Source of the DNA: a virus | Lineage: Duplodnaviria; Caudoviricetes | Reading direction: 5' to 3' (one strand) | Length of the DNA stretch: 64,000 nucleotides | Virus record (IMG/VR): IMGVR_UViG_3300031999_000006 | Location: 32,622 to 96,621 of that record | Shown here: in pieces, positions 1,162 through 64,000 of the stretch | How positions within the stretch are numbered: the first letter of the stretch is position 1 | Layout: every line of letters starts with the position of its first letter | The notes under the pieces: model-generated | Told to the model about the DNA's origin: nothing | The model's input: only the letters and a program-made list of their open reading frames with translations | Databases searched by the model: none | Translations under genes and position numbers: made by a program

Positions 1162-1165
1162 CGGC

Positions 1166-2770: not shown

Positions 2771-3191
2771 TGTCTCTTCCTTCTGACATAATTGCGTTCT
2801 CCCCGAAGTACCGGACGAGATCGTCAATTGAATAAAACACTGGTATACCAAGCTCTTTTGCCAGGCCCAGTTCTCCCCTTACCCCCAAGGATGTGTCCCA
2901 TCCTGATAACAACAGAATCGCATCGGCAACTACCAACCACGACAGGTCACACGTTTGCATAGTTACTCCTGTGGGCAGGACGGTATCAGTCGGTCGTGCA
3001 ATCCAATACATGAAGTCTACGAAAGGACAGTACGGTGCGAATCCTTTAGCAATAAGTTCAGTCGCCGCAGTTATTCCCTGCCGAACATTATCCAGATATT
3101 CGGCCACCTGATTGTGTCCACCATTCTCTGAAGGAGATAGACGCCCAGTTGGTGTAATAGGTCCTGCTATAAAGACTCTTACTTTTCTCAT
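2763..3191 (-). CDS. Nucleoside 2-deoxyribosyltransferase-like (DUF1937/DUF4406-type) protein
   Basis: VFIAGPIT...DLSWLVVADAILLLSGWDTSLGVRGELGLAKELGIPVF. Confidence 0.7.
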   Translation of the reverse strand: MRKVRVFIAGPITPTGRLSPSENGGHNQVAEYLDNVRQGITAATELIAKGFAPYCPFVDFMYWIARPTDTVLPTGVTMQTCDLSWLVVADAILLLSGWDTSLGVRGELGLAKELGIPVFYSIDDLVRYFGENAIMSEGRDNG

Positions 3192-3466
3192 GGTTTCACT
3201 CCACACTTACGTAGTGCCTTTTTCAATGGTGTTCCAAATAGATCGAAGTGGGGTTGGTAATGCTTATGGTGCAACCACTCAGTTTTCAGACCGAGTTCCC
3301 GCATCACCTGACCCAACTGAGTCAACGAAAGTCCACCAATCATCAAGTGCATCGTTTCTTTGCCTTTGTATTGCACCACATTAGGATAGACAGCAATGTT
3401 TCCCATTCGTACCCAGGCTCGTGCCTCTCGGTACTTACCAAAGGGAAAGAATCGCCATTCCATCAT
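3188..3466 (-). CDS. DUF4031-like small protein
   Basis: HLMIG...LGLKTEWLH...PHFDL pattern. Confidence 0.5.
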   Translation of the reverse strand: MMEWRFFPFGKYREARAWVRMGNIAVYPNVVQYKGKETMHLMIGGLSLTQLGQVMRELGLKTEWLHHKHYQPHFDLFGTPLKKALRKCGVKP

Positions 3467-3769
3467 CTATCTCCTCTTCCTTCGTTTAACAGCAAATGTA
3501 AGGATGATCGTAACGAAGGGACTGAACGGCCCCAGGATCTTCCCCCACTCTACTAACTCCGTCTTTAACTTTTCATAGAATGTTGGCGGAGGAGGTGGGG
3601 TAGCTGGAGTGTAATGCTCAGGTGGAAGAACATACTCAGGAAGAGCCTTTGAGAGTTTATACATCTCAGCGAATTGTGGAGTTGCAGGTACCAGTGTTGG
3701 CTTCACCCAAAACCAGCCTACCAGGGCCAATGTCAAGATGATAAGAACCCAAACAATGATGTCGCGCAT
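3467..3769 (-). CDS. Membrane protein with two TM segments and a Pro-rich linker
   Basis: Hydrophobic N- and C-terminal stretches, basic tail KRRKRR. Confidence 0.55.
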   Translation of the reverse strand: MRDIIVWVLIILTLALVGWFWVKPTLVPATPQFAEMYKLSKALPEYVLPPEHYTPATPPPPPTFYEKLKTELVEWGKILGPFSPFVTIILTFAVKRRKRR

Positions 3770-3771
3770 CT

Positions 3772-5751: not shown

Positions 5752-6189
5752 CTACTTCTTTTCTTTCTGTATCTTCACTGAGATAGTCAGACGGATATAC
5801 CGCTCCCAGGTTCGACTTTGTTTACTACCTTCACCATGAAGAATCCAATCACGAGTGACTTCCGTAGCATCGCTAAAATCAATCTCAACCCCCTGCCGAA
5901 GGAACTGGTCGAACGCCAGATCGACCACCTTCCCTCTGATCTCATTGAAGAAGTGATTGTTGTAACGATTGAACTTAATAATCCCCCCCAGGTAATCCTG
6001 AACGACGAGTGCCGTCACTGCACACTGGCCGAGAGATGGATTACATTTATTCCACTGGTCAGCGCATTTCGGATAGGCAGTATCCTTACTCCACGAGTTC
6101 CTGATCTCATTGACGAATGCTGGAGGAACAATACATTCTTTGCCTTGACCTTCCTCAATGAATGAATAGTCTATTCGCTTTCTGTTCAT
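5752..6189 (-). CDS. YunG-like protein
   Basis: SWSKDTAYP..W...NPSLGQCAVTALVVQDYLGG...HFFN...DLAFDQF. Confidence 0.65.
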   Translation of the reverse strand: MNRKRIDYSFIEEGQGKECIVPPAFVNEIRNSWSKDTAYPKCADQWNKCNPSLGQCAVTALVVQDYLGGIIKFNRYNNHFFNEIRGKVVDLAFDQFLRQGVEIDFSDATEVTRDWILHGEGSKQSRTWERYIRLTISVKIQKEKK

Positions 6190-6668
6190 TACGCAACCGC
6201 CTTCGCTAACTCCTGGGCTTTCTGAATCTCCTGCACGAACCACACCAGCAGTTCCTGCTTCCGTTTATTGAACTCATCTAAGAGTTGCGTCTTAAAAGGT
6301 TCGGGCAGTTTTTCAAAACTCTGCTCAACAAACCCTTTTCGGATGTTCCGTTCCGATTCACCAAGGAGGGGAGCAACGGCATCAAGGAACTGCTCCGACT
6401 CAATGACCCACAAAGAGATCAGTCGGGCAACACCAAGTTCCTTATAGGTAGATGCGGCGAAAGTCCCCTTCGCAAGCTTCTCGGCTTGATCAACTATGAA
6501 CTTCTCATAGTTATCGTAAACACTATTGTATGCTTTGAGTCTTGACTGTGCACGAGCTACTGTACGATAAGTAACATCAACCACATCACCACGTAAAACT
6601 TGAACCGCGGCATGCTCGGCGGCGATTTCTGCTTGGACAACTGCTAAGGACTCTTCAGCTTCGGCCAT
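6189..6668 (-). CDS. Helical protein, candidate terminase small subunit
   Basis: First gene after the AT-rich gap at ~6700, two genes upstream of TerL, strong SD (AAGGAG). The function is inferred from position only. Confidence 0.35.
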   Translation of the reverse strand: MAEAEESLAVVQAEIAAEHAAVQVLRGDVVDVTYRTVARAQSRLKAYNSVYDNYEKFIVDQAEKLAKGTFAASTYKELGVARLISLWVIESEQFLDAVAPLLGESERNIRKGFVEQSFEKLPEPFKTQLLDEFNKRKQELLVWFVQEIQKAQELAKAVA

Positions 6669-6739
6669 GATTTCTCCTTCTCTACGCGTAACTGCTTACT
6701 TCATATTAATATATTATAAGTTTCTATTGGGATTACAAG

Positions 6740-7162
6740 TCACTTAGAACCTAAGGCATCCTTTACGTCCTTGAGAAGATTATCCAACTCGTGCCGATAA
6801 ACACGACGAGCCGATTTAGCAAGGAGAGTATCAGTGACTTTCTTCTCCTTATCCTTTTCGGCGTGAAAGATCTCTGAAACTTTTCTGGTTGAGATCCCAA
6901 AGTAATTAGCCAACCGAGTTCTTGTTACCGAATTATTCTTGGTAACCAGTGAATTACGAATCACTTTTGATCGGTACGTCTTCCAAATAGTATCCAACTT
7001 TGGAAACAACACAGTATCACCAGCAAAAGTGGTTACCAACTTGACAGAAACTTCCGGAGGAAATAACATTAGCAGATCCCCCAGGACCGAAGTAGGATAA
7101 GTTTCCGCCACTGATACCATGGCCTCAAGGAATATCTTTTCAGCTTTGGTCATCGACTCCAC
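6740..7162 (-). CDS. Mor/C-like transcription activator (HTH)
   Basis: LVTTFAGDTVLFPK...LANYFGISTRKVSEIF. Confidence 0.55.
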   Translation of the reverse strand: MESMTKAEKIFLEAMVSVAETYPTSVLGDLLMLFPPEVSVKLVTTFAGDTVLFPKLDTIWKTYRSKVIRNSLVTKNNSVTRTRLANYFGISTRKVSEIFHAEKDKEKKVTDTLLAKSARRVYRHELDNLLKDVKDALGSK

Positions 7163-7820
7163 TCTCTTCCAATACTTCCTGTAAAAGTTTCTTTACCCTA
7201 GCTAGTGCCTTTCGGTTATTCTTGTAATACGGGTGTGACGAGAGACGATCAAGAACCTTCAGGCACCATCCCTTCCTGGTTTCACTGATCTCTAGTTGCT
7301 TTGCAGGATCTAGGAACTCACCAATTACTTCCCCAGTTCCTCTTTGATCATCAGAATCTATCCTGATCATCCGATCTCGTTTCTGTCGGCCGATATAAAA
7401 AAGACATCTTACCGTAGAAGGTGCCAGCTCAGTTGCTTCGGAAATTTGGTCAAACGATAGCTCCTCATCTTCTTTTAATTTAATAATAAGCCTTTCTTTC
7501 TCGCTAAGAGCCATTGGTATTCCATTCTGCTTCGATACACCCGCAAGACTATAATAAATGTAAGGCCAGATTCTAGTATAAAGGAAGTTGGTGGGTGCCA
7601 CCAGGTGCCGTTTCAACTGATCAGGATTCCTCAAATTCTTCCACATCTTGAGGAGCACCTCTTGCGAGATATCCTCAAACCAAGGAGAGTAAGATGGATA
7701 CTTTGAAAGAATCACTGAAACTAATGGACGACAGGCACCTATCAGCTCCTCGAATATTTTAGGATCTTCCGTTGCGCAGTATTCAGTGAACAAGCGATCA
7801 ATCGTTTCTTTGTCGTACAC
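7140..7820 (-). CDS. Sigma-70/ECF-like RNA polymerase sigma factor
   Basis: Region 2-like FEELI..RPLV...EDISQEVLLKMW; region 4-like LSEKERLII...LSFDQISEATELAPSTVR. Confidence 0.65.
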   Translation of the reverse strand: MYDKETIDRLFTEYCATEDPKIFEELIGACRPLVSVILSKYPSYSPWFEDISQEVLLKMWKNLRNPDQLKRHLVAPTNFLYTRIWPYIYYSLAGVSKQNGIPMALSEKERLIIKLKEDEELSFDQISEATELAPSTVRCLFYIGRQKRDRMIRIDSDDQRGTGEVIGEFLDPAKQLEISETRKGWCLKVLDRLSSHPYYKNNRKALARVKKLLQEVLEESGVDDQS

Positions 7821-16866: not shown

Positions 16867-17132
16867 TATTGACATAACTCCCCTACCTTCCTCAAGTCGG
16901 TTGAGGAAAAGACAGGCACTCCTTTGTATGACTCTCCGATCTCGGCATCGGTCACCGCAAACTCATCACCACTATGTGCCTTCATCCGAACTACATGAGT
17001 CCTGAGAAATGTGCTATCCCCCTCCACCACAAAACCTTTCGGCCGCTGACCTGATAGCTGATAGACAAGCTGACTGACCAAAGTACGATCACTACGACGT
17101 AGATACATCTTTAGGAGTATGCACTTATTCAT
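16866..17132 (-). CDS. Hypothetical protein
   Basis: Coupled ORF. Confidence 0.5.
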   Translation of the reverse strand: MNKCILLKMYLRRSDRTLVSQLVYQLSGQRPKGFVVEGDSTFLRTHVVRMKAHSGDEFAVTDAEIGESYKGVPVFSSTDLRKVGELCQ

Positions 17133-18082
17133 TTCTTGCCCACGAACTCTTCGTAATTCTTAGGAAAGTCCTCACTCCGAAACTTCTTAGTCTGTTCAGG
17201 AAACTTGTACCAGCCGGCAATGCTTTCCAACTCACCATGTCTGACCATGTAATCAAGCAATCCTGAGTAAGTGTCAATCGGTTTGTCTGTTAGCATCTCA
17301 AAGTTCACCACCCCGAAGGGCCGGCAAATCTTTGACTTCGCAACCTCTAAACGTCCTTTGTACCCGTCAAGTTCCTTGGTTGACTCATTCCTAATTGCCC
17401 CCGATAGGAAGCAGTGAAGGCGAAGGGAAGCAGTGAACTTGATCGCCTTACCGCCCACCGTCTCCGTTTTCTCTCCATACATAACCCCGATCTTGTCTCG
17501 GATCTGATTGATGAAGATCAGACAGATTTTACTTTGGTAAACCTTCGCCATGACTTGCTTGAGGCCGTCACCGATTACCTTTGCCCTTCGCATTGAGGCC
17601 TCACTACGACCAATCTCCTTCTCTAAGTCCTCAATTCCTGGAGTAGCGGCAACAGAATCCCAGATTATCGTAAGTAGCTGATCTGGGTCATCATCACGAA
17701 GCAGTTTCACACTTTCACCAATGACCTTGAAAACATCCTCAATAGTTTTTAACTGGGTATCAGGATCGGGATAGAAAAAGGTATCGTCCAACTTGACACC
17801 GGTCAGAGTTATCAACCCCTGATCAAGAGCGCGTTCGGTATCAATCAGGACGGCTCGACCACCTAGACGCTGAGTCTCAGCAATGACATGACAAGCGATC
17901 CTACTTTTCCCTGTACTGAAGTCACCATATATTTCGGACAGTTTCCCTGCAGGGATACCGCCTCCGATAACCCGATCAATAGCCAGGATACCAGTGGGCA
18001 CTCTGAACTTGACCAATTCACTAATACGATCGGCCAGATTGATAGTCCCCAGTTTATTGTGAAGATCACCTGTCTTAGTCAT
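17129..18082 (-). CDS. recA: RecA/UvsX recombinase
   Basis: EIYGDFSTGKS, IDTERA, WDSVAA, INQIRDKIGVMYG, GGKAIKF. Confidence 0.92.
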   Translation of the reverse strand: MTKTGDLHNKLGTINLADRISELVKFRVPTGILAIDRVIGGGIPAGKLSEIYGDFSTGKSRIACHVIAETQRLGGRAVLIDTERALDQGLITLTGVKLDDTFFYPDPDTQLKTIEDVFKVIGESVKLLRDDDPDQLLTIIWDSVAATPGIEDLEKEIGRSEASMRRAKVIGDGLKQVMAKVYQSKICLIFINQIRDKIGVMYGEKTETVGGKAIKFTASLRLHCFLSGAIRNESTKELDGYKGRLEVAKSKICRPFGVVNFEMLTDKPIDTYSGLLDYMVRHGELESIAGWYKFPEQTKKFRSEDFPKNYEEFVGKK

Positions 18083-18099
18083 TGTCTCACCTTTCACCT

Positions 18100-18167
18100 A
18101 AAAAAGAATCCGGACCGGAGGGAGGAAAGTTGGGCGCCACGATCGCTACCCCAGCCAGTCCGGATCC
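18100..18167 (-). terminator. Long-stem hairpin with U-tail after the SSB gene
   Basis: 13-bp stem (arms 18106-18118 and 18155-18167, two G-U pairs), 36-nt loop, followed by U6 on the mRNA. Confidence 0.5.
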
Positions 18168-52944: not shown

Positions 52945-53421
52945 TCAGACTCCCTTCGCAAGCGCAAACGATTCGGCGAAGAACTCCTCAACGTTCTTCT
53001 CACTATACTTCGTGGGGAAGGAAACCAACCCCTTCTTGGCCTGATCAAAAAGTTCCTCAACGTCCTTACGTTCACTCTGCGTCAACCGAAGGAACCAAAC
53101 TGCATGACCAATCTCATGAAGGATGTTATACTCGGTCACCACCACACCAGGAGTTGCACGAAGGAGGATCCGACCACCATCACTCTCACACATCCCCAAA
53201 GCACTCTTCGGCCGATATCCGGAGAGTTCAGTTGCCCACTCATCTTCTGAAGTAATGATCCGAATTTCCCAGATGCACCGCCGATCCCACCCACTCAATT
53301 TATTGATACTTTGCCGGATGGTTTGTTCCGAAACTGAATCGGCTCCAATGATCAAAGGATGCTTTGCAAATCCAAAAAGGAAAAGGCTTAGGCTCAGGAC
53401 CTGAAGGATTTCTTTTACCAT
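52945..53421 (-). CDS. Zinc metallopeptidase, lethal-factor/PPEP-like zincin with N-terminal signal-like segment
   Basis: ILHEIGHAV...YSEKNVEEFFAESFA; hydrophobic N-terminus VLSLSLFLFGFA. Confidence 0.7.
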   Translation of the reverse strand: MVKEILQVLSLSLFLFGFAKHPLIIGADSVSEQTIRQSINKLSGWDRRCIWEIRIITSEDEWATELSGYRPKSALGMCESDGGRILLRATPGVVVTEYNILHEIGHAVWFLRLTQSERKDVEELFDQAKKGLVSFPTKYSEKNVEEFFAESFALAKGV

Positions 53422-53452
53422 CTTTGCCTTTCTCATTTTCATCCTCACTATT

Positions 53453-53481
53453 ATTATATATGATGGTTTTCTAAGTGTCAA
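53453..53481 (-). promoter_or_regulatory. Early sigma70 promoter
   Basis: TTGACA-cttagaaaaccatcata(17)-TATAAT. Confidence 0.85.
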
Positions 53482-53881: not shown

Positions 53882-54184
53882 TTAGTTCCCTCCGAATAGT
53901 TTTAACTTCAACAACGCCGAAACAAGAAATAGAAGTATGGCTGATGCGAACCCACCCACTGCTCCATACATACCATTCTTGACCTTCTGTACTGCTTTTT
54001 GGATAGCAATTTCTTGTTGTATATCTTCAACCGCTTGCTTTACTTCACAAATACATTCGTGATTGCTTTTTAGTGAACCAATAATAGCGGTAATGTTTTC
54101 ATTCGCTACCCTTAGTGCTTCCTCAGCTCGTCCTTTAAATTCAGCGACTTCCCGCAGGTAACGTTCAAATTCTTCTGGTGCCAT
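53882..54184 (-). CDS. Coiled-coil protein with C-terminal TM, holin-like
   Basis: MAPEEF... coiled coil followed by GAVGGFASAILLFLVSALL. Confidence 0.5.
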   Translation of the reverse strand: MAPEEFERYLREVAEFKGRAEEALRVANENITAIIGSLKSNHECICEVKQAVEDIQQEIAIQKAVQKVKNGMYGAVGGFASAILLFLVSALLKLKLFGGN

Positions 54185-54419
54185 GTTTAACTCTCCTTTT
54201 TCTACATCCAAGAAAGGTTCCAGCTCCAGTTCCCAACGCATACGCGAGGAAGAGGGAATCTGATCCGAATGTAAGATTGAATACTTTCATAGTTCCATAC
54301 GTAATGACCATGGCCAAGATAGAGGCCAACCAGACCGAGTGACGTGATAGGGCTAGATAGTACTTTGCGATCAAAAAGTCCTGAACGACTCCGATCAAGA
54401 AGTACAGGCCAAGGATCAT
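54165..54419 (-). CDS. Small three-TM membrane protein (holin-like/DUF5698-like)
   Basis: Three hydrophobic segments, AYALGTGAGTFLG, basic tail. Confidence 0.5.
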   Translation of the reverse strand: MILGLYFLIGVVQDFLIAKYYLALSRHSVWLASILAMVITYGTMKVFNLTFGSDSLFLAYALGTGAGTFLGCRKRRVKHGTRRI

Positions 54420-54452
54420 CTGACCCTCCTTCAACATTTGTTTTCTGTACCA

Positions 54453-55703
54453 TTAGTCCCTCAAGTCCCAATACCAGTTTGTCGCAATTTGAAGATCGTC
54501 GAAATCAAGGTTAATACGAGCCGCCGTGCCCGTGGTATTACAATAAAAGGATACCTGAGTCCACAACTCACTCATGGTTCGACATGCCTTTGGAGCACCC
54601 ATCTGAACTCCATCAATGAAAACGAGTGCGTAGGGATTGGCCGCTCCTCCGACAATGAACAAGTCAACTTCGTACCACTGATTATTGTTTATGGGATTCA
54701 CTAACGAGATGATAGCCGTCCCAGTCCAAAAGGCCAAACTACCACCACTCACACTATTAAAATAAACCTGAGCGCAATCGGCATTGGATAATGTCCCAAT
54801 CTGAAATCCCTTTGTTCCCACCGTTTTATCTGACGTTCTCATTTTACAGTGGAAACGAGTCCCAAACGCGAGGCCCCAGGGCCATGCCGCACCAGTCAAT
54901 ATCCAACACCGTGAAGTCCCCTCTGTAACTGTATCACCATCGAGCTGTCCCATCTTATCCGCACCAGCATTAACGACAACCTTCGCCGTGGTATCCCCAA
55001 TTAAACTAGCATCCCATGCCGCAAAGTTAGTATAGGAACCTTGTCCAAGAATATTGGCAGTATTAAGCCCGTCGAATAGCTCACTAATAAGAGTACGCAT
55101 TCCTGGTTTAAGCCAGGTCCCAGCCCCACTCAAGAAGCTCTCGGTATCTCCGTCTCGCTTCGGAGCAAGGCCATGGAGTGTCGGCGAAACATCAAGGTCT
55201 GTGTTATCGTCCGGAGCGGCTAAATCGTCCAGCTTGATCGCATCAGCACCCCCACCACTTTCGTGTTGTGCCTTATGTAACGCGTCGGCAAACGCTGAGG
55301 CATGCTCTCCATCAACCTTGTCTGAATCACCTACCTGAGAGATAATGTCTCCACCGCCATGCTGATGGGAGACAGGAGCAAAGTCAGCAGCATGGTCTCC
55401 ATCGACCGTATCAGCATCCCCCGCCTCAGTGGCATAGTCAGACGCATCCACCACACCATCGTCGTTGGTATCGTAGATGGCCTTCATCATGTCGCCTGCA
55501 CCAGCGGCGGCAAACTCAAGACCATCTACAGTCGCCTTTACCACAACAACCTTTCCACCTTCCCCAACATAACTATTTGGAACATCCGTCAGGTCAGTAA
55601 AGGCAGATGCGCCACCCCCTATTGCCTTTATTCTTTTTAGATAGTTCTGTAGAATGCGATCAAGCTCCGCCTCAGTAATGAACCGCTCTCTGCTTCCAGG
55701 CAT
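54453..55703 (-). CDS. Tail fibre/receptor-binding protein
   Basis: FTDLTDVPNSY, GDMMKAIYDTNDDGVVD, repeated D(T/K)VDGxHA, FLSGAGTW fibre motifs; beta-rich lectin-like C-terminus. Confidence 0.7.
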   Translation of the reverse strand: MPGSRERFITEAELDRILQNYLKRIKAIGGGASAFTDLTDVPNSYVGEGGKVVVVKATVDGLEFAAAGAGDMMKAIYDTNDDGVVDASDYATEAGDADTVDGDHAADFAPVSHQHGGGDIISQVGDSDKVDGEHASAFADALHKAQHESGGGADAIKLDDLAAPDDNTDLDVSPTLHGLAPKRDGDTESFLSGAGTWLKPGMRTLISELFDGLNTANILGQGSYTNFAAWDASLIGDTTAKVVVNAGADKMGQLDGDTVTEGTSRCWILTGAAWPWGLAFGTRFHCKMRTSDKTVGTKGFQIGTLSNADCAQVYFNSVSGGSLAFWTGTAIISLVNPINNNQWYEVDLFIVGGAANPYALVFIDGVQMGAPKACRTMSELWTQVSFYCNTTGTAARINLDFDDLQIATNWYWDLRD

Positions 55704-55705
55704 TG

Positions 55706-57046
55706 TTATCTCTCGCTAGGTTGATCTTCACACGTACCAGGTTTCTTATATTTCTTTCCCCAAAGTTCACCTGTACGAGCAAGTGTGACCAAGGATATCT
55801 CCGCCCACATTCTCTGAAACTTACAATGGTTGGTGAGAATCATCTTACGATCACCCGTGCACTGAAAGTTCATCGCATTACATCCACCCCGACAACGCCA
55901 ACGAGCAACACAATCGTCACACTTGAACCCCGAGGTGGGATCAGGATACATATACTCTCTCTTGAGATCCTGAACCTCAGCCAGTTTATGCTCATCAAAC
56001 CCTTTCCAAATATCACCTATCGCCAGTGATGGATCCGAGAACGAGGCGTATCGTTGGCAGGCAAACAACTTCCCTTCGGAATCAACGCCTACCACTCCTC
56101 GTGCAATTCCGCAAACGTGGCCGGTTTGTTCTTGGGCTCCGAGGAATCCAAGTCCATCCTCAATAAACTTCATCCAGATAGGCAGACCCGCCCGCCTTCG
56201 TTCTACATAAATCTCGGCAAGATTCTCATACATTAACCGGGCCTCTTGAAGGCTCTCATCTGTCCAATCCGCCTCGTAAGCCACCTCAGTAGCCACAATA
56301 TACAACCCCTTGCTATGAAACCAGCGAAGGTCAGCCAACCAGTCTGCTACCGTATCAGGGGTAATGGTCGGACGTATTTCCGGAGTTGGATAATACTCCA
56401 GGATCAAATCCAACGGAATAAGATGATGGGAGTTTCCCCCACCAACTGTCTTCCTATGATGATCATGAGTCTCGGGACGACCATCAATACTGAAGAGAGG
56501 AACCATCTCCCACTTCTTCATGAACTCCAAACGCTCCCGATTGAGAAGGGTTGCGTTGGTGGTCATGCCCCAACGAACTTTCCGTCCATACAACTTATTG
56601 TAATAGTCAGAGAACTCCTCTACAAATTGAGTGAGACTGTCCCACTCAACCGTTGGCTCTCCTCCGAAGAATTGAATACTGATGTCATGAGCGCCCAACC
56701 GTTTGTCTTCCTCCTCGGTGAGAAAGACTTTCAGCCGATCAAGCATTTCCTTAGTTGCGGAGATCGGTTTCTTCGTTGCGTAACAATAGGTACAACGAAG
56801 GTTACATTCGTTCGTTAGAAAAACGAAATAGTTTGCTTCGTTCTGCCCACTAGTACCTTTGTCTTTTTGATCAGCATAGCACTTTTGGCAGTGGTAACAA
56901 TCGGCACAGTCAATGGAATCATCCTTCACGAACCACTCCTCAGGAATCTTCCCATCGGCTTGAGCCTGAAGAAACATTTCTGCGTTCACATGTTTTGCTA
57001 CCCCTTTCTCGCAATGGTAACAGTTAAGACATGCTTTATCATTCAT
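55706..57046 (-). CDS. Radical SAM/SPASM maturase with Cys-rich N-terminal extension
   Basis: CNLRCTYC, FFGGEP, TTNATLL, SIDG; SPASM CGIARG..VDSEGKLFAC...CDDC..RWRCRGGC...HC. Confidence 0.92.
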   Translation of the reverse strand: MNDKACLNCYHCEKGVAKHVNAEMFLQAQADGKIPEEWFVKDDSIDCADCYHCQKCYADQKDKGTSGQNEANYFVFLTNECNLRCTYCYATKKPISATKEMLDRLKVFLTEEEDKRLGAHDISIQFFGGEPTVEWDSLTQFVEEFSDYYNKLYGRKVRWGMTTNATLLNRERLEFMKKWEMVPLFSIDGRPETHDHHRKTVGGGNSHHLIPLDLILEYYPTPEIRPTITPDTVADWLADLRWFHSKGLYIVATEVAYEADWTDESLQEARLMYENLAEIYVERRRAGLPIWMKFIEDGLGFLGAQEQTGHVCGIARGVVGVDSEGKLFACQRYASFSDPSLAIGDIWKGFDEHKLAEVQDLKREYMYPDPTSGFKCDDCVARWRCRGGCNAMNFQCTGDRKMILTNHCKFQRMWAEISLVTLARTGELWGKKYKKPGTCEDQPSER

Positions 57047-57055
57047 AGTTTACTC

Positions 57056-57379
57056 CTATTGGTGCGTAACACATAACTGACAATTATTACAAATCTGACA
57101 AGTGGGACACTCCCCTGAATAACACGCCGACTGGCATGTATTACAAATCTGACACGTCGAACACTGAGCCGTATAACAACTTTGACACGAATCGCATAAC
57201 TGACAAGTGGGACACTGCCCTGTATAGCAGGCGGCTTGACAGGTATTACAAAGTTCACAAGTACCACACTGTCCTGTATAGCAGGCGGCTTGACATGCCA
57301 CACAAACCTGACAACTTCCGCATACGGCGGCAAAACATGCCTGACAGGCATCACAACTCTGACATGTTGGGCAAGCCAT
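57056..57379 (-). CDS. Cys-rich repeat peptide (107 aa, 30 Cys), candidate radical SAM substrate
   Basis: Six 17-18-aa units CxxC(Q/E)xCxxCQx(x)CxxxQ/E/V; GGAGGA SD; ATG overlaps the upstream stop (TAATG). Confidence 0.85.
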   Translation of the reverse strand: MACPTCQSCDACQACFAAVCGSCQVCVACQAACYTGQCGTCELCNTCQAACYTGQCPTCQLCDSCQSCYTAQCSTCQICNTCQSACYSGECPTCQICNNCQLCVTHQ

Positions 57380-59949
57380 TATGGTAAAATTCCTCCGTAG
57401 CATTTTTGACAGCTATCACATTTTTGACAGCTATCACAATGCATACAAGTAGTACACTCACCAGTGACACACTGTTGACAAGTTACACAAATTCCACACT
57501 GACCACCTTGACAAGCATCACATGACTGACATGTGTTACAAATCTGACAAGTGGTACATTGTCCCGAGACACACGCCTGGCAGTAATAGCAGGTTTGACA
57601 AGTCGCACATTGACCAGAGACACAAAGTTGGCAGGCATAACAACTTGTACAAGCACCAGACTGCACCGTATTACAAACTTGGCAGTGATAACACACCTCA
57701 CAAAACCCACCGCCCGACGATTGTAAATCTTCCCAAGCAATGACTCCAACCTTTCCTGACTGCATGGACTTTTTAAGGTCTAGCAATCTGTACGGTTCGG
57801 AAGCCAGAACGGAGTAAACTGTCCCATCGGAAAGCAATCGTGTCTTTGTGATGATCACCTTACTCCCGGGGAAAGAAGAAAACATTTTAGAGGGAAGTAT
57901 ACCAGTAACCTTTTTCAAAGGATCTTGTAAAACGCCGACGTAATAAGCCCCCAACTCCTCGGCATCGGCCTGCAATCGAAGTGAGGTGGTTAAGGGAAGT
58001 GTTAGCTCGTTTCCATGCTTCCACTCAGTCTTTGCCGAAACAATCTCAACACTAGAGTAATGATTCTCACTAGGTAGAAGACCATAATTAATCTGGATTG
58101 TTTTGTAGACACCTTCAGTATCAAACTCCAAACCAAAGTCCTCAATCTCCTCATCAACAACTACTGGAGTATTACTATCCGTTCCTTCATAATATCGAAA
58201 CGCGCCTAGTTGCCCGTTAAGTAAAGGGGACAAGTGGAAGAGGGCGGACACCTGAAGAGTACGAACGCTCTCTAGTGCGGGGGATGACGTACTTAGATAA
58301 AGATGATGCTTTTGTGAACGTCCGGATTGTAGATCAAGAAAGGACTTTAACTCAATGTAACTGAACTCAACTCCAGCATAGGTGGTCAAGAGATCGAATA
58401 AGATATCGGCAACGTTCTCGGAGTAGGCGCCATCAAGTATTCCGCACTTCCGGCCCTTAACATGGGCCACAACAAAGGCCTGACCAGGGTCGGCCACGAG
58501 AGAGAACTCACCATTGGCAAGGTCAACTGAGTAGTCAGCCGGGGTGGCCAGTAGTTGACCATTCTTCCAAACATTCACGATCGCCTCAAGTTCGTGGCAG
58601 GCCAACTTGAATGTGTAGGGATCTTTCCCACCGACTATTCCAGAGGAGGCATTAATACAAGTGGCAACCACTTCCTCAAACTCACCATAGATAATCGGTA
58701 TAGGAGTACCTTCAGCACCATCCTCAAGTTCGGAATAGTTATCTACCTCATAGGTTGTTAGAGGAACGTTCTTATATGTGAACGCCTTATGGTCAATTAC
58801 GTCAACTGAAACTATAAGATCACTAGCCTTTGGATATCTAGCCAAACCATGGAAGACATCTTCATATTGATCATAAGTGAAGTCCTTGGCACCGAATCGT
58901 ATTACCACATCCTTTAGATTCCAATAATACTTCTGCACCTGCTCATACCACCAACCATCGTTCAAGAATTGAAGTGAACCAAACTCCATCGTCATCGCGC
59001 TCTCGTGAAAGGGAGAAACCGACTGGTGAAGTTCAGGCATTCCTGCGGTAGTGATATAAGGAAGATAAGGATTCTGTTCCCGTTCAATGATCAAGCTTGC
59101 CTTGTCGAAGTAACAGGATGCTGAAGCAGACGAGTCACTCTTAAAGGTTATAATGTAATCTATGTACGAGGCATTGGCAACAAAGGTCAAAGTGTGGGTG
59201 GTCCACTCTGTCTGGTTACTGAGTGCAATCTGATCTGGTGAAGCACCCCAAGATCCATCACTGGCCAAGTAGACATTATCTGCTGAATCTTTGATCTCAA
59301 TAGCTGAAGTTGCCGAACCGGTATGCTTGTATCGAACGATCACCTTACAAGTTGCATCAGGAACCAATCGGATATGTTGGTGTACTGAGGCCTCATTGTT
59401 CCCAGCATCAATGTCCAACCGAACGCAAAAAGCACCATCGTCAGCCTCAGTCTGCTCCCGATTGACAGTAGAGGTACCAGCTTCACCTTTCGTCCAGTTC
59501 ACTGGTGTAGTCGCGTCACTCCAACGCTCATAGCTACCATCAATCAGCGCGGAACCTATTCTGGGAAGGACGATTAAAGCATCACCATACTGAGTGTTGG
59601 CGAAGTATCTCCAGAAGTAGGCCAAGACAACATAGTCATATAATGGAGGTGCTGTCTGGGTTCCAGGATCATCAGTATCAGTCGTATGCAGATAAAGTTT
59701 TTGGTTAGCCAAGTCATAATAAAAATACTCGGCGTTGTCGTCTGCCTCCTGAAGGGAGTAGGCTTCGGTATACTCAACTCCGTCTTGGGTTACTCGAGAG
59801 ACCACACCGTCTGTATATGAAGACCACCAAAGATTTGTATAGACACCATCCTGCTCCCAAGCCAAGGACTCAACTTCGTGACACGGTTCGATCTCAGCGA
59901 GAAAGACCTTCCACGAATCAGTCTTGGCAATCAATTGCTGGAAGTTCAC
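57379..59949 (-). CDS. Tail tip/hub-like protein with carbohydrate-binding-like insert and C-terminal 30-Cys repeat
   Basis: Follows TMP and the distal-tail-like gene; GTPIPIIYG motif; insert beginning LIDGSYERW; last 107 aa are CxxC repeats. Confidence 0.75.
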   Translation of the reverse strand: MNFQQLIAKTDSWKVFLAEIEPCHEVESLAWEQDGVYTNLWWSSYTDGVVSRVTQDGVEYTEAYSLQEADDNAEYFYYDLANQKLYLHTTDTDDPGTQTAPPLYDYVVLAYFWRYFANTQYGDALIVLPRIGSALIDGSYERWSDATTPVNWTKGEAGTSTVNREQTEADDGAFCVRLDIDAGNNEASVHQHIRLVPDATCKVIVRYKHTGSATSAIEIKDSADNVYLASDGSWGASPDQIALSNQTEWTTHTLTFVANASYIDYIITFKSDSSASASCYFDKASLIIEREQNPYLPYITTAGMPELHQSVSPFHESAMTMEFGSLQFLNDGWWYEQVQKYYWNLKDVVIRFGAKDFTYDQYEDVFHGLARYPKASDLIVSVDVIDHKAFTYKNVPLTTYEVDNYSELEDGAEGTPIPIIYGEFEEVVATCINASSGIVGGKDPYTFKLACHELEAIVNVWKNGQLLATPADYSVDLANGEFSLVADPGQAFVVAHVKGRKCGILDGAYSENVADILFDLLTTYAGVEFSYIELKSFLDLQSGRSQKHHLYLSTSSPALESVRTLQVSALFHLSPLLNGQLGAFRYYEGTDSNTPVVVDEEIEDFGLEFDTEGVYKTIQINYGLLPSENHYSSVEIVSAKTEWKHGNELTLPLTTSLRLQADAEELGAYYVGVLQDPLKKVTGILPSKMFSSFPGSKVIITKTRLLSDGTVYSVLASEPYRLLDLKKSMQSGKVGVIAWEDLQSSGGGFCEVCYHCQVCNTVQSGACTSCYACQLCVSGQCATCQTCYYCQACVSGQCTTCQICNTCQSCDACQGGQCGICVTCQQCVTGECTTCMHCDSCQKCDSCQKCYGGILP

Positions 59950-60713
59950 TATCTTAACTCCTCAATGGAACACACCGCATTGAAGTATGCCTCTCCGAAG
60001 ACATGATCAATCGTAGGTTTGGATGAAAACCGGACATACCAGGTCGTGGTGGAAGGGAGATCCCGGTCTCTGGTGAAAAAGAATTCTCGTCCGATACCAC
60101 GATCTAGAAACATCGCATCAAAGTTATCAGCATCAACAGCGGGTAGATTTTCAAACTTCATATCCATAGTGCGGTAGCGAGTTTTCTGATTAGTAACAAT
60201 CTGCCCACCAGAAGAAAACATCACATCTGACGGATCCTCGGTCGACTTTTTATAATCAATGGACATATTGATTGACGGACTGAGGTAGGGACCAAGGAAG
60301 ATCCGTCCGATCTCCAGATAAGCCGCCACCGGTGCAGTGTCAACAATCAATACTCGCCAGTATTGATAGGGAGTTTGAGGTGCCAACCAAAAGTAGGCCA
60401 TGAGTTCCGCAACTGGTACCTCAACATCAATGTACAAATTCCCGAAAGCAGGATCATCATCGGCTTGAATACTAACCACCGCCGAAGGTGAGAAATTATG
60501 CTTTTTTATAGCGAAGGCTTGTATCGCTGGAGGAGAGGCACCAAAGTCGGCTACAATGGACTCCGTCAATGTCCCGGTATTGTTGATGCTTCGCCAGGTT
60601 CTTGTATGCCACCGGTGCTGGGTATTGATCGCTGGGAAGAGGGGGTTCTCCGTACTAGGAGTCAGCGTGGCGAGATCCCACTTGTTACTATACATAAATG
60701 TGCAGTTGGTCAT
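59949..60713 (-). CDS. Distal/minor tail protein
   Basis: Directly after TMP; YQYWRVLI...YLEIGRIFLG. Confidence 0.65.
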   Translation of the reverse strand: MTNCTFMYSNKWDLATLTPSTENPLFPAINTQHRWHTRTWRSINNTGTLTESIVADFGASPPAIQAFAIKKHNFSPSAVVSIQADDDPAFGNLYIDVEVPVAELMAYFWLAPQTPYQYWRVLIVDTAPVAAYLEIGRIFLGPYLSPSINMSIDYKKSTEDPSDVMFSSGGQIVTNQKTRYRTMDMKFENLPAVDADNFDAMFLDRGIGREFFFTRDRDLPSTTTWYVRFSSKPTIDHVFGEAYFNAVCSIEELR

Positions 60714-63700
60714 TATCCTCTCCCTCTAACCGCCCGAGGCCGTACCAAGATTCGTTCATCAGCACTGGCCTTTTGAACCCACTCAATCACTAACGACTGA
60801 AGATGCTTGAAAGGAATGATCACCGGTTCAAAGGTCACATTCTTTTCAATCACGGTAACTTGGGATCCATCACTCTCTACCTTGCCCGGTCTTCCGATCC
60901 TCACCGCCTCGGTCACTCCAGGTTCAACATAGAATGTTCTTGGTCCTGTTACCGTACCTTCAAACCCATGCTGGGCTCTTGTGGTCTGCCGCCCTCCCGC
61001 CTCTTGACTATCTCGCGTCTCTTCACCAATTTTTATGAGGCGGTCAGCACGACCAATAAGATCACTAAACCCTTCCGCAAGTATCGTATTAATATCCTTG
61101 CCTCTCTCTTTCCAAGTACCGGCCAACTTTGCTTGGGCAATCAGCATCTCCGTACCAGCATCAAGTTTTAGTCCATATTGTTCAGCATAATAGGCCAGAT
61201 CAGATAAGGTCGGAGAGACCATCGCCATCGCTTGTTTAGGATCAAGTCCGGCCGAGATCAGTTTATCATAATATCCAGTAGCCTGTGTAGAAAGATCCGC
61301 CAGTGATTCGGCAGTTAGGAAGCCGGTATCACCAAGTGCCTTAAGTAGTTGTCTTGTTCCTTCAAGACCCTCAAACAATCCCTCGTTCGCTTTTTGTATA
61401 TCAACCAATTTGAAAAGATCCTCAATCGCGGCTCCACCAGTGAGACCCAACTCCGTGTACTTGTCACGAAGGGCAACAAGGGAGTCCCCCATCAGAGCAA
61501 AGGTTTCAGACATACTTTTGCCTTGCTGAATAAACGAACTGAACATCGCCACAGTCAGGCGACCAACTCTCTCCAACTCTGGAGCAAGTCCAGAAGCCAG
61601 AGAAGTTTTCAGATCGTCATACTTTTTGCGCAACTCCTCCAACTGGGCCTTTTTCTGGAGGTACTCACGCTGGGCGGCCCGCTCAGAGATCTTAGACATG
61701 GACAACTTATCAACTTCTTCGCCCAAAGTCTTTATCTCATCACGATAGGTGATCAACTGCTTATAACCTGAACCGCCGACCGACTCAACCATAGACTTCA
61801 AGCCGCCCGCACCTTTCTCAAGGGCTCCAAAGACATAGTCATCCACTTCAGCAATACTTACTCCGATCTTCCTGAGATACTGCATGAAAGAGACCAATGC
61901 CTTAGATCCCTCCTTATCGAACTTTTGTGCCCAGGTGATCAAGGCGTTGAAAGCTGAACCTATTGCATCCATCCCCTTCTGTACATCAACTGTTCCGCTT
62001 GCCATATCCCGAAGTGCCTGAGTCATCTTCGTAACATAACCCTGAAGGTTCTTCATTGAGATTCCGGCGTCGTTCATCACATCAGTCAATGTCATGATCG
62101 TAGCGGTTTGTTTGTTATACTGCTTGGTTAGATCAATAATCTTTTTCGCTGTGGCCTCAGTAATGTCTCCCAAACTCTTATACGACTTGGTCACGGAGTC
62201 AACTTGCTTCTTCAGTTCCTCGGCGGCCTTTTGTTCGGCAGTTTTCTTTTTCTTGAACAACCCACCAAAGAGTCCACCAACAAGCGATCCGATCACATTA
62301 CCAACACCAGGGAGGATGGAACCGAGAGCACCACCTAACGCGGCTCCGATGCCTCCGTAAGTATTCGCTCCACCTCCACCAATCAATCCACCCAAGGCGG
62401 CGCCCAACGCACCGGCCAGTTCACCACTCAATTCCTTAAAGGCTTTCTTCAAATTCTTGAAGTCCATCTTTCCTTTACCACCCATCTCATTAAACTGTCT
62501 GGTCAAACTGGAAGCTATCTGTCCGGCAACAGAGGCGGCCGCTGTCACTAGTGGTTTCAACTTTTCGCCAGCAGTGTCACCAAAGACCTGCAAGGCAGTG
62601 CCTAAAGCTGAGAAACCTTTGATCATATCACTACTCATTCCCTTTGCGGCTTCTGCGGCCTTGTCAATGATCTTCTGATACTCCTTAGGAACCGTCAAAC
62701 CCAACTGATGATAAAGATCGGCGATCATGGTCACCGCCGTAACTTCATCCTGGTGAGTGATGTCGGCAGTTGCCTTTAGTGAACGATAGGCTTCCTCAAC
62801 TTCAACGAGTTTGTATTTATACTGAGTTGCCCTTTGTATTCCAAGTAGAGCGGCCTTCTCGTCCATAAATCCTGAAAAGTATCGAGGAGGAGGAGTGGGA
62901 TACTGAACCGCAGGACCCATCATCTGTTCCTCAGTCATAAGTCCTGGGGCCTCAAGATTCCATTTCTTTGGCGAAGGAAGCGGAGTTTCGGCCACCTTGG
63001 TCATATTGTTTAGCGTGGCAGTAAGAGTAGGATCTAATTTCTTCAACGCCTCATTGATCGCATCAATTCCTGCTTGATAGTTTGCCCAAGTGATGTTGCC
63101 GGCTTCCATTTCCTTTTTCAGATCCCAGAAGTCCTTTGTAATCTTGATGACTTCGACGGAGACTTCCGTCTTGGTCAGTATGCCGAGATTCAGGAGAGCT
63201 TGACTATTCTTTCCTAATACAGCGCCCAGTTCCCTTAGTTCTTTCTTCATACGATCGTAGTCAATCTTGGTCATCTGGTCGCCGAAGTCCGCAAGACCCT
63301 GCTTTAGTGTGTCATAACGATCCTGAACTTCTGTCTTCAGAGTGTAACCATAACCCTTCAGCATCTCACGCAAACCAGCTAGGCGATTGGTTTCGGCTTC
63401 TGCCGCAGTTGCCGCCGCCTGGGAAGACTCACTTAAGGCCTTCTTCTCTTCCACCTTTGCCTTGATCAATTTCTCAGTCCCGTTGTTAACTGCCTCTAGT
63501 GCCGCACTATATGAACCGTACTTGATCTTTAGTTGAATAGCACTCTCACCAGTATCCCGGAGTGCGGCTTTTAGATCAGTCATGGCTTTTAGTTGCTTCG
63601 TATTCTCGGCTCCGGCTCCCCAGTCACCGATCTCGAGAATCTTTTTCTTCAGACCGGTCACATCACTAAGCCATTCACCAATCTTCCAACCTGCGGCGAA

Positions 63701-64000
63701 GGCGGCTAACGCGGCGACTGCTGTGCCCAAGGCGGCAGTGATGCCACTCATCGCTCCGGCAAGGCGGGGCATGGTAGTGAGTCCAGTTTCTATCCCGGCC
63801 ATCAATAGTCTTCCGAAAGAGACCGCCTTGGAGGCAACAGTAAAGGCCAACCAGACCTTAAACAACAGAACCAACTCATCCTTGAACTTGACTATGAACT
63901 TGATCGCATCACCAATTGCCTTACCGATGCTAAGTCCAGTGGTAATTACACTCTGAGTCAATGCGTCAATTCGCTTCTTCATCTCCTCAGCAGACCCAGC
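60713..64000 (-). CDS. Tape measure protein (5' end outside the window)
   Basis: >1090 aa Ala/Gly/Lys-rich helical protein with GAALGG..G stretches; frame is open to base 64000. Confidence 0.85.
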   Translation of the reverse strand, partial: AGSAEEMKKRIDALTQSVITTGLSIGKAIGDAIKFIVKFKDELVLLFKVWLAFTVASKAVSFGRLLMAGIETGLTTMPRLAGAMSGITAALGTAVAALAAFAAGWKIGEWLSDVTGLKKKILEIGDWGAGAENTKQLKAMTDLKAALRDTGESAIQLKIKYGSYSAALEAVNNGTEKLIKAKVEEKKALSESSQAAATAAEAETNRLAGLREMLKGYGYTLKTEVQDRYDTLKQGLADFGDQMTKIDYDRMKKELRELGAVLGKNSQALLNLGILTKTEVSVEVIKITKDFWDLKKEMEAGNITWANYQAGIDAINEALKKLDPTLTATLNNMTKVAETPLPSPKKWNLEAPGLMTEEQMMGPAVQYPTPPPRYFSGFMDEKAALLGIQRATQYKYKLVEVEEAYRSLKATADITHQDEVTAVTMIADLYHQLGLTVPKEYQKIIDKAAEAAKGMSSDMIKGFSALGTALQVFGDTAGEKLKPLVTAAASVAGQIASSLTRQFNEMGGKGKMDFKNLKKAFKELSGELAGALGAALGGLIGGGGANTYGGIGAALGGALGSILPGVGNVIGSLVGGLFGGLFKKKKTAEQKAAEELKKQVDSVTKSYKSLGDITEATAKKIIDLTKQYNKQTATIMTLTDVMNDAGISMKNLQGYVTKMTQALRDMASGTVDVQKGMDAIGSAFNALITWAQKFDKEGSKALVSFMQYLRKIGVSIAEVDDYVFGALEKGAGGLKSMVESVGGSGYKQLITYRDEIKTLGEEVDKLSMSKISERAAQREYLQKKAQLEELRKKYDDLKTSLASGLAPELERVGRLTVAMFSSFIQQGKSMSETFALMGDSLVALRDKYTELGLTGGAAIEDLFKLVDIQKANEGLFEGLEGTRQLLKALGDTGFLTAESLADLSTQATGYYDKLISAGLDPKQAMAMVSPTLSDLAYYAEQYGLKLDAGTEMLIAQAKLAGTWKERGKDINTILAEGFSDLIGRADRLIKIGEETRDSQEAGGRQTTRAQHGFEGTVTGPRTFYVEPGVTEAVRIGRPGKVESDGSQVTVIEKNVTFEPVIIPFKHLQSLVIEWVQKASADERILVRPRAVRGRG

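Follow-up and report, generated by a model that had tools for sequence, protein, structure and literature searches.

A candidate radical SAM crosslinking system for cysteine arrays in the tail operon of an uncultured phage

Introduction

Several described systems invite comparison with a three-gene cassette found in the tail operon of a tailed virus (Duplodnaviria; Caudoviricetes), within a 64,000-nt stretch of DNA, here called the window, which corresponds to bases 32622-96621 of the 96.6-kb linear IMG/VR record IMGVR_UViG_3300031999_000006 (rated complete by CheckV). The cassette consists of genes for a tail-tip hub protein that ends in an array with Cys at every third residue, a separate (free) Cys-array protein, and a radical S-adenosylmethionine (SAM) enzyme. 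Judged by the best-scoring enzyme family, its nearest likeness is to the PapB/PapA (freyrasin) pair, PapB being a radical SAM enzyme with auxiliary clusters. PapB is reported to link Cys to an Asp or Glu located C-terminal of it, at i+1 to i+7, with acceptors reported as acidic only (PMC12373016), and to work without a leader (PMC12715619). The phage enzyme departs from PapB by a score under 340, and by the lack of a predicted RiPP recognition element (RRE; RiPP, a peptide made on ribosomes and then modified post-translationally) together with leaderless substrates, N-terminal CxxCxxC motifs being present instead. Moreover, the proteins on which it would act are a tail-tip protein of 856 aa and a second one of 107 aa, both with 30 Cys at a period of 3, in which the motifs would overlap, and the system is phage-encoded inside a tail operon.

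Likeness to the QhpD/QhpC system for the maturation of quinohemoprotein amine dehydrogenase is at the level of the radical SAM/SPASM family (122.3 bits). QhpD makes Cys-to-Asp/Glu thioethers within a protein subunit rather than in a released peptide, though that system represents cellular enzyme maturation with few crosslinks and no repeat array. SCIFF maturases have a short six-Cys peptide as their target. The closest structure by both sequence and fold is the SCIFF maturase CteB (PDB ID: 5WGG and 5WHY (PMC13692751)), with which the SPASM Cys pattern aligns, although some 100 N-terminal residues of the CteB structure are without a counterpart in the phage enzyme. In an archaeal case, CrpC, a SPASM radical SAM enzyme of Methanococcus voltae, is reported to install ranthionine crosslinks on the large Cys-repeat protein CrpA, in which a 17-residue repeat bearing a C-x-x-Q/D motif occurs ten times (Dieter et al., 2026; PMC13692751). 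This system differs from ours in being cellular, in having a predicted RRE on CrpC and a 47-residue leader-like N-terminus on CrpA, and in its other Cys spacing; the main text contains neither the word 'phage' nor 'tail' (PMC13692751). Set against classical RiPPs, the candidate substrates here are the C-terminus of an 856-aa structural protein and a leaderless protein, no RRE is predicted, and the cassette holds no protease or exporter gene. The term 'RiPP-like', used in an initial annotation made by a model from the letters of the DNA, is thus apt for a system that is without the leader and RRE by which classical RiPPs are defined.

On the structural side, the hub shares both its fold and its position after the tape measure gene with solved tail-tip chains (PDB ID: 8xcg, 8iyk, 8k35, 7zqp, 7zhj, and 8hqz), which we take to be hubs of the lambda gpJ and T5 pb3 type, the entries being titled only 'tail tip' or 'baseplate'. 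It differs from them in ending in a Cys array instead of a folded C-terminal fibre or receptor-binding part. From the comparisons described below, we lean, if not strongly, toward the reading that the hub and free arrays make up a central tail needle in which the enzyme forms thioether bridges, docking by its own repeat motifs without a leader or RRE.

Conservation of the cassette and its association with array-tailed hubs

The cassette comprises the following features, given by window position.

57379..59949, minus strand: predicted tail-tip hub protein, 856 aa (AlphaFold2 model and Foldseek)
57400..57702, minus strand: C-terminal hub array (residues 750-850) with Cys at every third position, 30 in all, in blocks of 4, 4, 5, 6, 4, and 7
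57056..57379, minus strand: free leaderless Cys-array protein, 107 aa, 30 Cys in six five-Cys units (open reading frame with its own ATG)
55706..57046, minus strand: predicted radical SAM/SPASM enzyme, 446 aa, a relative of PapB and CteB (NCBIfam, PDB, and Foldseek)
56837..57046, minus strand: N-terminal extension of the enzyme, approximately residues 1-70, with two substrate-like CxxCxxC motifs (sequence and AlphaFold2)

All three linked genes with the Cys-every-third motif that the initial annotation had pointed out are present at these positions, and its count of 30 Cys for both the hub tail and the 107-aa peptide was confirmed, each forming an array of 101 aa.

Searches with the enzyme returned a distinct clade, which we regard as confined to viruses, of about 75 protein clusters that are 34-97% identical to it over the full length and all come from metagenomes, with the next cellular PapB-like proteins at about 30%. 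Among 185,579 species (one genome each), there was no clade member, the best match being 29-30% identical and without the N-terminal region, and that scan identified neither a prophage nor a host. Each of the seven IMG/VR loci of the clade (L001-L007) has, directly upstream of the radical SAM gene, one gene for a large protein whose C-terminus is a Cys-every-third array and another for a stand-alone Cys-array protein; L002/L003 and L006/L007 are near-identical pairs. A metagenome scan added only two more clade loci (L084 and L085), both of them short and with array open reading frames (ORFs) upstream, so that a Cys array directly precedes the enzyme gene in 9/9 clade loci. Radical SAM homologs lacking Cys-repeat neighbors, which the initial annotation had named as speaking against its proposal, were not seen among these nine. 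According to BLASTP, the large upstream proteins are hub homologs (27-60% identity) that are preceded by tape-measure homologs, and the order of tape measure, array hub, free array, and radical SAM enzyme is kept even at 26-30% hub-core identity. This is the synteny for which the initial annotation had advised a search in phage and metagenome contigs. Among GenBank phages, the best match to the enzyme is from Phage Phass-1 (OQ749652.1, L307 7001-8062), with 28.5% identity over 78% of the query. The Phass-1 gene sits among hypothetical genes with no evident tail context, in a phage of the 'code 15' clade with suppressor tRNAs.

We also searched viral contigs from the hub rather than from the enzyme, using profiles of the hub core and of His-tailed, CxxxC-tailed, and array-less hubs. 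Downstream radical SAM genes were detected with a hidden Markov model of the clade, phmmer searches with two other radical SAM proteins, and a motif screen, duplicate contigs having been removed. The outcome by hub type was as follows.

Cys-every-third hubs: 14 contigs, 4 not assessable, 10 assessable, 10 with a radical SAM gene downstream
His-rich-tail hubs: 3 contigs, 0 not assessable, 3 assessable, 3 with a radical SAM gene downstream
Array-less hubs: 46 contigs, 23 not assessable, 23 assessable, 0 with a radical SAM gene downstream

Each of the ten assessable Cys-array hubs is followed by a free array ORF and then a clade radical SAM gene within about 1 kb (the L244 contig holds only the first 72 enzyme residues), and all ten were recovered by hub-seeded scans, which indicates that their radical SAM genes are not an artefact of retrieval. 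Of the four contigs that could not be assessed, two break off within the array, while the other two reach only 172 nt further downstream. The His-tailed hubs have a different radical SAM gene at a distance of 4-426 nt downstream (3/3). As for the array-less hubs, 2.4 kb or more of sequence follows each of the 23 assessable ones; the remaining 23 were set aside for a truncated hub or too short a downstream region. With the window included, array and radical SAM gene co-occur in 14/14 cases, as against 0/23 for array-less hubs (Fisher p = 1.6e-10, uncorrected for relatedness).

Paired cysteine arrays

While the first 732 residues of the hub hold 7 Cys, its last 107 or so hold 30, with a Cys spacing of 3 inside blocks and 5-8 between them. 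The free peptide begins with M-A-C, and its array runs from residue 3. Its longest ORF has 115 aa, from an in-frame ATG at 57403, whereas translation from the ATG at 57379 gives the 107-aa form; this second ATG overlaps the TAA stop of the hub (TAATG), lies 11 nt after a GGAGGA, and agrees with the start of orthologs that begin with M-[A/S]-C. All of the peptide Cys are invariant in 4 aligned orthologs. No Pfam, NCBIfam, or PHROG family was matched by the peptide, for which a homologous-protein search also found no relatives and a protein atlas gave no usable match; the sole Pfam hint was to a zinc-finger model (E 0.032), below cutoff. That hub and peptide form one gene through recoding was considered and rejected, as the peptide has its own ATG and Shine-Dalgarno sequence and its spacing to the hub stop varies by locus.

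The hub and free arrays of each genome are similar in size, as listed here by locus (aa/Cys).

Window: hub array 101/30, free array 101/30
L244: hub array 101/30, free array 101/30
L001: hub array 98/29, free array 107/31
L002: hub array 288/83, free array 285/81
L005: hub array 233/63, free array 230/62
L006: hub array 240/64, free array 239/66
L256: hub array 246/74, free array 266/81
L257: hub array 278/80, free array 269/76
L004: hub array 296/80, free array 252/70 (start of the free array uncertain; the stop-to-stop frame holds 83 Cys)

Over a threefold range, the per-genome lengths of the two arrays correlate with r = 0.99 (first 7 loci), and in L002 and L006 the Cys-block pattern is also alike between them. 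At non-Cys positions, the hub and free arrays of one genome share an identity of 0.15-0.50, which is lower than among orthologs (0.39-0.49 for hub arrays and 0.51-0.59 for free arrays). On this basis, we consider them to be old paralogs held at equal length, which in turn points to a lengthwise pairing of the arrays, and we rejected a recent duplication or gene conversion as the source of the equal lengths.

It is possible, if rather unlikely, that the free array remains outside the virion, either as an assembly chaperone or template that presents the hub array (a leader in trans) or as a released modified peptide. Such a role would suit an array that has a gene to itself, complete with start codon and Shine-Dalgarno sequence; genes for tail-fibre chaperones commonly lie just downstream of that for the client, and the His-type hubs described below do without a free array (0/3 have one). 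Yet the cassette contains no leader, signal peptide, protease, or exporter gene, and a released product has no need for a length that tracks the hub array from 101 to approximately 290 residues, although a template would also predict matched lengths.

With regard to the residues between the cysteines, the one that follows Cys in CxxC steps is Q, D, E, or N in 367/578 cases and the next is T, S, or V in 350/578, while the arrays contain almost no K, R, H, W, F, or P. Overall, D/E/N/Q is found at i+4 of 69-73% of Cys versus 32-36% of non-Cys positions (71-75% of Cys in the window's own arrays), and for the first Cys of a block it is found at i+4 in 76-78% but at i+1 in only 16-30%. Such a grammar fits a donor-acceptor relation with an acceptor C-terminal to the Cys, by analogy with what is reported for PapB.

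Features of the radical SAM enzyme

The Pfam Radical_SAM model matches the enzyme with 42 bits against a cutoff of 29.5, and the three Cys of its CxxxCxxC motif (C81, C85, and C88) are invariant among 24 aligned homologs. Equally invariant in this alignment are seven further Cys (C312-x12-G325-x4-C330, C376-x2-C379-x5-C385-x3-C389, and C408), an arrangement that we take to be the SPASM signature. The 'full SPASM domain' of the initial annotation therefore stands as regards this seven-Cys pattern, which aligns to a solved SPASM enzyme, but not as regards the Pfam SPASM model, which gave no match even at E=10.

Of 66 NCBIfam matches, the best was to PapB (NF047865), with 193.2 bits against a cutoff of 340 (E 6.8e-57) and an alignment spanning model positions 7-327 of 330. 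Lower scores were obtained for the SCIFF maturase TIGR03974 (124.9 bits, cutoff 425), a nif11 maturase (123.4 bits), QhpD TIGR03906 (cutoff 453), the CXXX-repeat radical SAM maturase TIGR04115 (76.8 bits, cutoff 350), whose target has Cys at every fourth residue as opposed to the spacing of 3 here, and anSME TIGR03942 (73.5 bits); the CrpC family TIGR04463 is not among the best 25 of the 66 matches. By sequence, the closest solved structure is PDB 5WGG (92 bits), with query residues 75-419 aligned to chain residues 101-446, including the C-terminal Cys motifs. The AlphaFold2 model is confident for the core (residues 68-430), and Foldseek places 5why_B first (E 2.5e-21, template modelling (TM) score 0.64-0.68) and the anSME structure 4k37 second (E 1e-18). 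Sequence and model thus suggest an enzyme from the thioether-forming neighborhood of SPASM maturases that is probably a member of no named family.

Where 5WGG and 5WHY have about 100 further residues, the phage enzyme, whose start is preceded by its own AGGAG, has about 70 N-terminal residues containing 7 Cys in two CxxCxxC(xxC) motifs that resemble the ends of the hub array. In the AlphaFold2 model, this region has one short helix; residues 1-16 and 41-67 stay under 50 in the predicted local distance difference test score (pLDDT), and nothing resembling an RRE fold is predicted within the N-terminal 67 residues. N-terminal CxxCxxC motifs are found in 70/75 clade proteins versus 1/45 of the next (outgroup) proteins, and the five clade proteins without them are three N-terminally truncated fragments and two 415-aa proteins. 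Moreover, the number of motif copies in the enzyme goes up with the number of array Cys, from 2 copies for 29-30 Cys, through 3 for 63 and 4 for 64, to 5 for 74-83 (counted in 7 loci, as the L004 enzyme could not be parsed).

These enzyme data also bear on whether the arrays might be substrates of another chemistry, namely sactionine formation (S to C-alpha), conversion of Cys to formylglycine as by anSME, hub-free inter-chain links, or carbon-carbon links, which we regard as improbable. The enzyme is below every family cutoff, its second structural match is to anSME, and the title of the 5WGG/5WHY entry speaks of 'thioether bond formation in sactipeptides'; acidic acceptors are also few in the window arrays, and equal array lengths would suit inter-chain links. 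Thioether formation is nevertheless favored by the PapB and SCIFF families being named as ranthipeptide or thioether maturases and by QhpD being a thioether former, as well as by the i+4 polar grammar, which resembles the Cys...Asp/Glu motifs of PapA. Nor is the target motif of anSME present.

The tail-tip hub

AlphaFold2, run with an alignment of 25 homologs, models hub residues 1-745 with a pLDDT of about 90. In Foldseek, the model matches the DT57C baseplate (8hqz_A) and the T5 tail tip (7zqp_b, 7zhj_b, and 9ioz) with E-values of 2e-15 to 1e-13 over some 780 columns, and tail-tip chains of lambda (8xcg, 8iyk, and 8k35) with 1e-13 to 1e-11. Further matches are to T1, Sf11, and a gene transfer agent (GTA) hub/particle, among others, and the Foldseek probability is 1.00 for all of the chains named here, those of DT57C, T5, and lambda included. 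The TM scores against solved tail-tip chains are only 0.24-0.40, which is caused by a different arrangement of domains, and by sequence the hub has no relative of solved structure. As modelled, then, the hub is predicted to share the gpJ/pb3-type tail-tip fold of siphophages, and the fold supports the tail-tip role that the initial annotation had assigned to it. Its gene follows those of the tape measure and a presumed distal-tail protein, as with gpJ/pb3-type hubs, the middle gene being placed by position only. We take the source to be an uncultured tailed phage with a tail tip of the non-contractile type. In solved hub relatives, the tail tube is sealed by the hub, whose C-terminal part is directed distally, and for this reason we place the Cys array at the very tip of the tail.

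A jelly-roll insert at approximately hub residues 140-300 (59050-59530) gave Foldseek matches to carbohydrate-binding modules CBM4, 16, 22, and 61 (E about 1e-7). The NCBIfam model 'GTA_spike_fiber' ('head spike fiber' domain) also matches this insert, below cutoff. Possibly the insert decorates the tail tip as a glycan-binding domain.

Sister hubs with other C-terminal repeats

In 1.84 billion proteins, the hub-core profile found 2623 representatives at E <= 1e-3 and 327 at E <= 1e-30. Among the best 150, 16 have a Cys-every-third tail, 43 a His-rich one (H-x-D type, with 2 more borderline), and 4 a Cys-every-fourth one, the remainder having no array or other domains. The four hubs of the Cys-every-fourth kind (C-[E/Q]-x-x-C; P0175, P0250, P0276, and P0277) represent a third repeat type on the hub scaffold, and when CxxxC-type hubs were used as the starting point of a scan, no hub with a CxxxC array and usable context came back.

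Three loci have His/Tyr-x-Asp hubs (L251:8626-14260, L255:7986-11372, and L259:8358-12209). The radical SAM enzymes beside them are closest to DynA, anSME, and cyclophane-forming maturases, all below cutoffs, and each of the three has at its C-terminus short H-G-D-type repeats resembling the hub tail. L251 additionally has a B12-binding radical SAM protein; a viral scan with the L251 radical SAM enzyme returned only itself. Thus, as both the Cys-type and His-type loci show, two chemically different hub tails are each accompanied by a matching class of peptide-modifying radical SAM enzyme and by copies of the substrate repeat on that enzyme.

Here, the main alternative to array crosslinking has to be weighed, which is that the arrays bind metal or Fe-S clusters, as a metallothionein-like scaffold or a cluster chain at the tail tip, with the radical SAM enzyme acting elsewhere or holding extra clusters in its Cys motifs. 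The arrays consist of 30% Cys in CxxCxxC spacing, the His/Asp-rich sister tails are metal ligands as well, and the free peptide gave the zinc-finger hint mentioned above. As a precedent, the lambda tail-tip protein gpL reportedly binds an Fe-S cluster, a finding said to be that of Tam et al. in 2013. However, metal binding leaves unexplained why arrays are linked to peptide-maturase-type radical SAM enzymes in 14/14 versus 0/23 cases, and it gives no account of an enzyme class that switches with the array residues (PapB/CteB-like for Cys and DynA/anSME/cyclophane-like for His/Tyr-x-Asp). It also does not explain the conserved D/E/N/Q at i+4, and the arrays are without ferredoxin-like CP endings or loops. 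We therefore hold metal or Fe-S binding to be unlikely as the main role of the arrays.

As a wider reading, which we offer tentatively and rate at somewhat less than an even chance, there may be a gpJ/pb3-like hub family with interchangeable C-terminal repeat 'warheads' (Cys every third, Cys every fourth, and His/Tyr-x-Asp). Each would be matured by its own class of radical SAM enzyme that recognizes the substrate via enzyme-fused repeat copies instead of a leader and RRE (the copies lying at the N-terminus for the Cys type and at the C-terminus for the His type, with a number that scales with array length). In the Cys type, hub and free arrays would be stapled, perhaps also one to the other, so as to give a covalent needle for contact with, or piercing of, the host envelope.

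Proposed mechanism

In the crosslinking reading that we favor for the window, the co-transcribed radical SAM/SPASM enzyme would, in the infected cell, bind both the hub array and the separately encoded array of equal length. Docking via the enzyme's own N-terminal CxxCxxC motifs is proposed because the arrays are without a leader and the enzyme without an RRE. Chemistry by the 5'-deoxyadenosyl radical would then join Cys sulfurs to nearby side-chain carbons as ranthionine-type thioethers, for which the likeliest acceptor would be the Asp, Glu, Asn, or Gln four residues after most Cys. Subsequently, the hub arrays (three, should the hub be trimeric like its structural relatives) and the free arrays would pair lengthwise, giving a covalently stapled needle or fibre, resistant to redox conditions and proteases, at the distal tip where it meets the host envelope. 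Taken separately, that the arrays are substrates of the adjacent enzyme appears probable, and a modified array would be nearly as probably present in virions; the chances that the product is a thioether look evenly balanced, and the same may be said of the hub and free arrays co-assembling. The initial annotation, pointing to SCIFF/CteB and similar systems, had proposed that the phage crosslinks or metal-loads its own tail tip, and the view that the radical SAM enzyme acts on the Cys arrays there has gained support from the tail-tip fold of the hub, from the enzyme's nearest families and structures being thioether-forming, from the conserved cassette, and from the 14/14 versus 0/23 association.

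Several points weigh against this crosslinking reading. Its support is comparative throughout, and since contigs of one lineage are relatives, the association counts make the cases look more independent than they are, with about five independent Cys-array lineages represented. Cys-rich neighbors of outgroup radical SAM loci were looked at in L008 only. The hub has no match among 50,697 GenBank phage records, and AlphaFold2 leaves its array unmodelled (pLDDT below 35). Being below the cutoff of every named family, the enzyme cannot be assigned a chemistry by family membership. Asp and Glu amount to only 5/101 residues in the hub array and 4/101 in the peptide array of the window, where the i+4 residue is mostly Gln; with PapB reported to need acidic acceptors, a simple transfer of its chemistry to these Gln-rich arrays is weakened. 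Moreover, given the strict period of 3, the i+4 enrichment is partly the same signal as that at i+1. Finally, CxxCxxC is a classic metal or Fe-S ligand pattern, and the His/Asp arrays of the sister hubs are also rich in metal ligands.

Genomic surroundings

Nearly all window genes are carried on the minus strand, on which the gene order is tape measure, 254-aa protein, hub, 107-aa peptide, radical SAM enzyme, and fibre. The genes that flank the cassette are the following.

60713..63982, minus strand: tape measure protein, 1089 aa (PHROG phrog_167 'tail length tape measure protein', E 5e-11)
59949..60713, minus strand: 254-aa protein in the distal-tail (Dit) position (position only; phrog_8610, function unknown, E 2.9e-21)
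54453..55703, minus strand: tail-fibre-like protein, 416 aa (phrog_11660 'tail protein', E 1.8e-6; phrog_18179 'virion structural protein', E 6.6e-6)

Of the flanks named in the initial annotation, the tape measure and a fibre-like gene downstream are borne out by these matches, while the distal-tail name for the 254-aa gene is by position only. The Pfam model TMP_3 gave 24.3 bits on the tape measure, under its cutoff of 41, and tape-measure homologs lie upstream of the hub in L001-L005 and L007. The 254-aa protein is 58% identical to the gene at the same position in L001 and, by sequence search, has no relative of solved structure.

The fibre gene lies directly downstream of the enzyme gene, and this arrangement would suit the idea that the radical SAM enzyme serves elsewhere, for instance on the downstream fibre or a small molecule, the Cys arrays forming disulfide-rich domains after release, as extracellular Cys-rich repeats often do. 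We consider this highly improbable, given that the fibre is not conserved beside the enzyme (partial homologs follow it only in L002 and L084 of the 9 loci) while the arrays are always present, and that the array-like motifs of the enzyme scale in number with array size. The fibre-like protein has two D-x-D-x-V-D-G-x-H-A-x-x-F-A repeats, with similar ones found in fibres beside the array-less hubs L264 and L301; for this reason, we regard them as ordinary shaft repeats and not as targets of the radical SAM enzyme. Likewise, His-rich ORFs beside the L264 and L301 hubs were considered as counterexamples to the association and rejected as ordinary fibre repeats.

As the tape measure gene starts 18 nt from the end of the record (window 63982-64000), the record is permuted. 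Genes upstream of the tape measure sit at the record start (1-7407), most of them without a PHROG match, and a major head protein is encoded at record positions 16903-18132 (phrog_138, E 1e-43). Past the fibre gene, the region at window positions 52945-53481 and 53882-54437 includes a 178-aa ORF with an N-terminal hydrophobic segment and a HEIGH (HExxH-type) motif, which is adjoined by a pair of small ORFs, of 119 and 90 aa, that overlap and contain hydrophobic stretches. No PHROG family was matched in this region. Together, these ORFs may form a lysis or metallopeptidase cassette just after the tail genes.

Significance

Our literature search found no paper on the radical SAM modification of phage tail or virion proteins. 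What is known here is the class of chemistry, and what would be new are the virion substrate, the recognition without a leader or RRE, the paired arrays, and the enzyme-borne repeats. The usual view of phage virions is that nearly all of their proteins assemble by themselves and are unmodified, and the radical crosslinking of a part that touches the host would, if true, be a new principle of virion construction. RiPP-type chemistry would by the same token extend from small secreted peptides to a viral structural protein, and to recognition that needs neither a leader nor an RRE. We know of no denser arrays of Cys donors than these, with 30% Cys and up to approximately 90 Cys per chain. Specific structural predictions follow from the arrays being paired at matched length and from the substrate mimics borne by the enzyme. 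The system is compact, with three genes, and such enzymes could be useful for stapling repeat proteins. Should the tentative reading of a hub family with interchangeable tails prove true, radical SAM crosslinking would be a general means by which phages build and diversify their tail tips.

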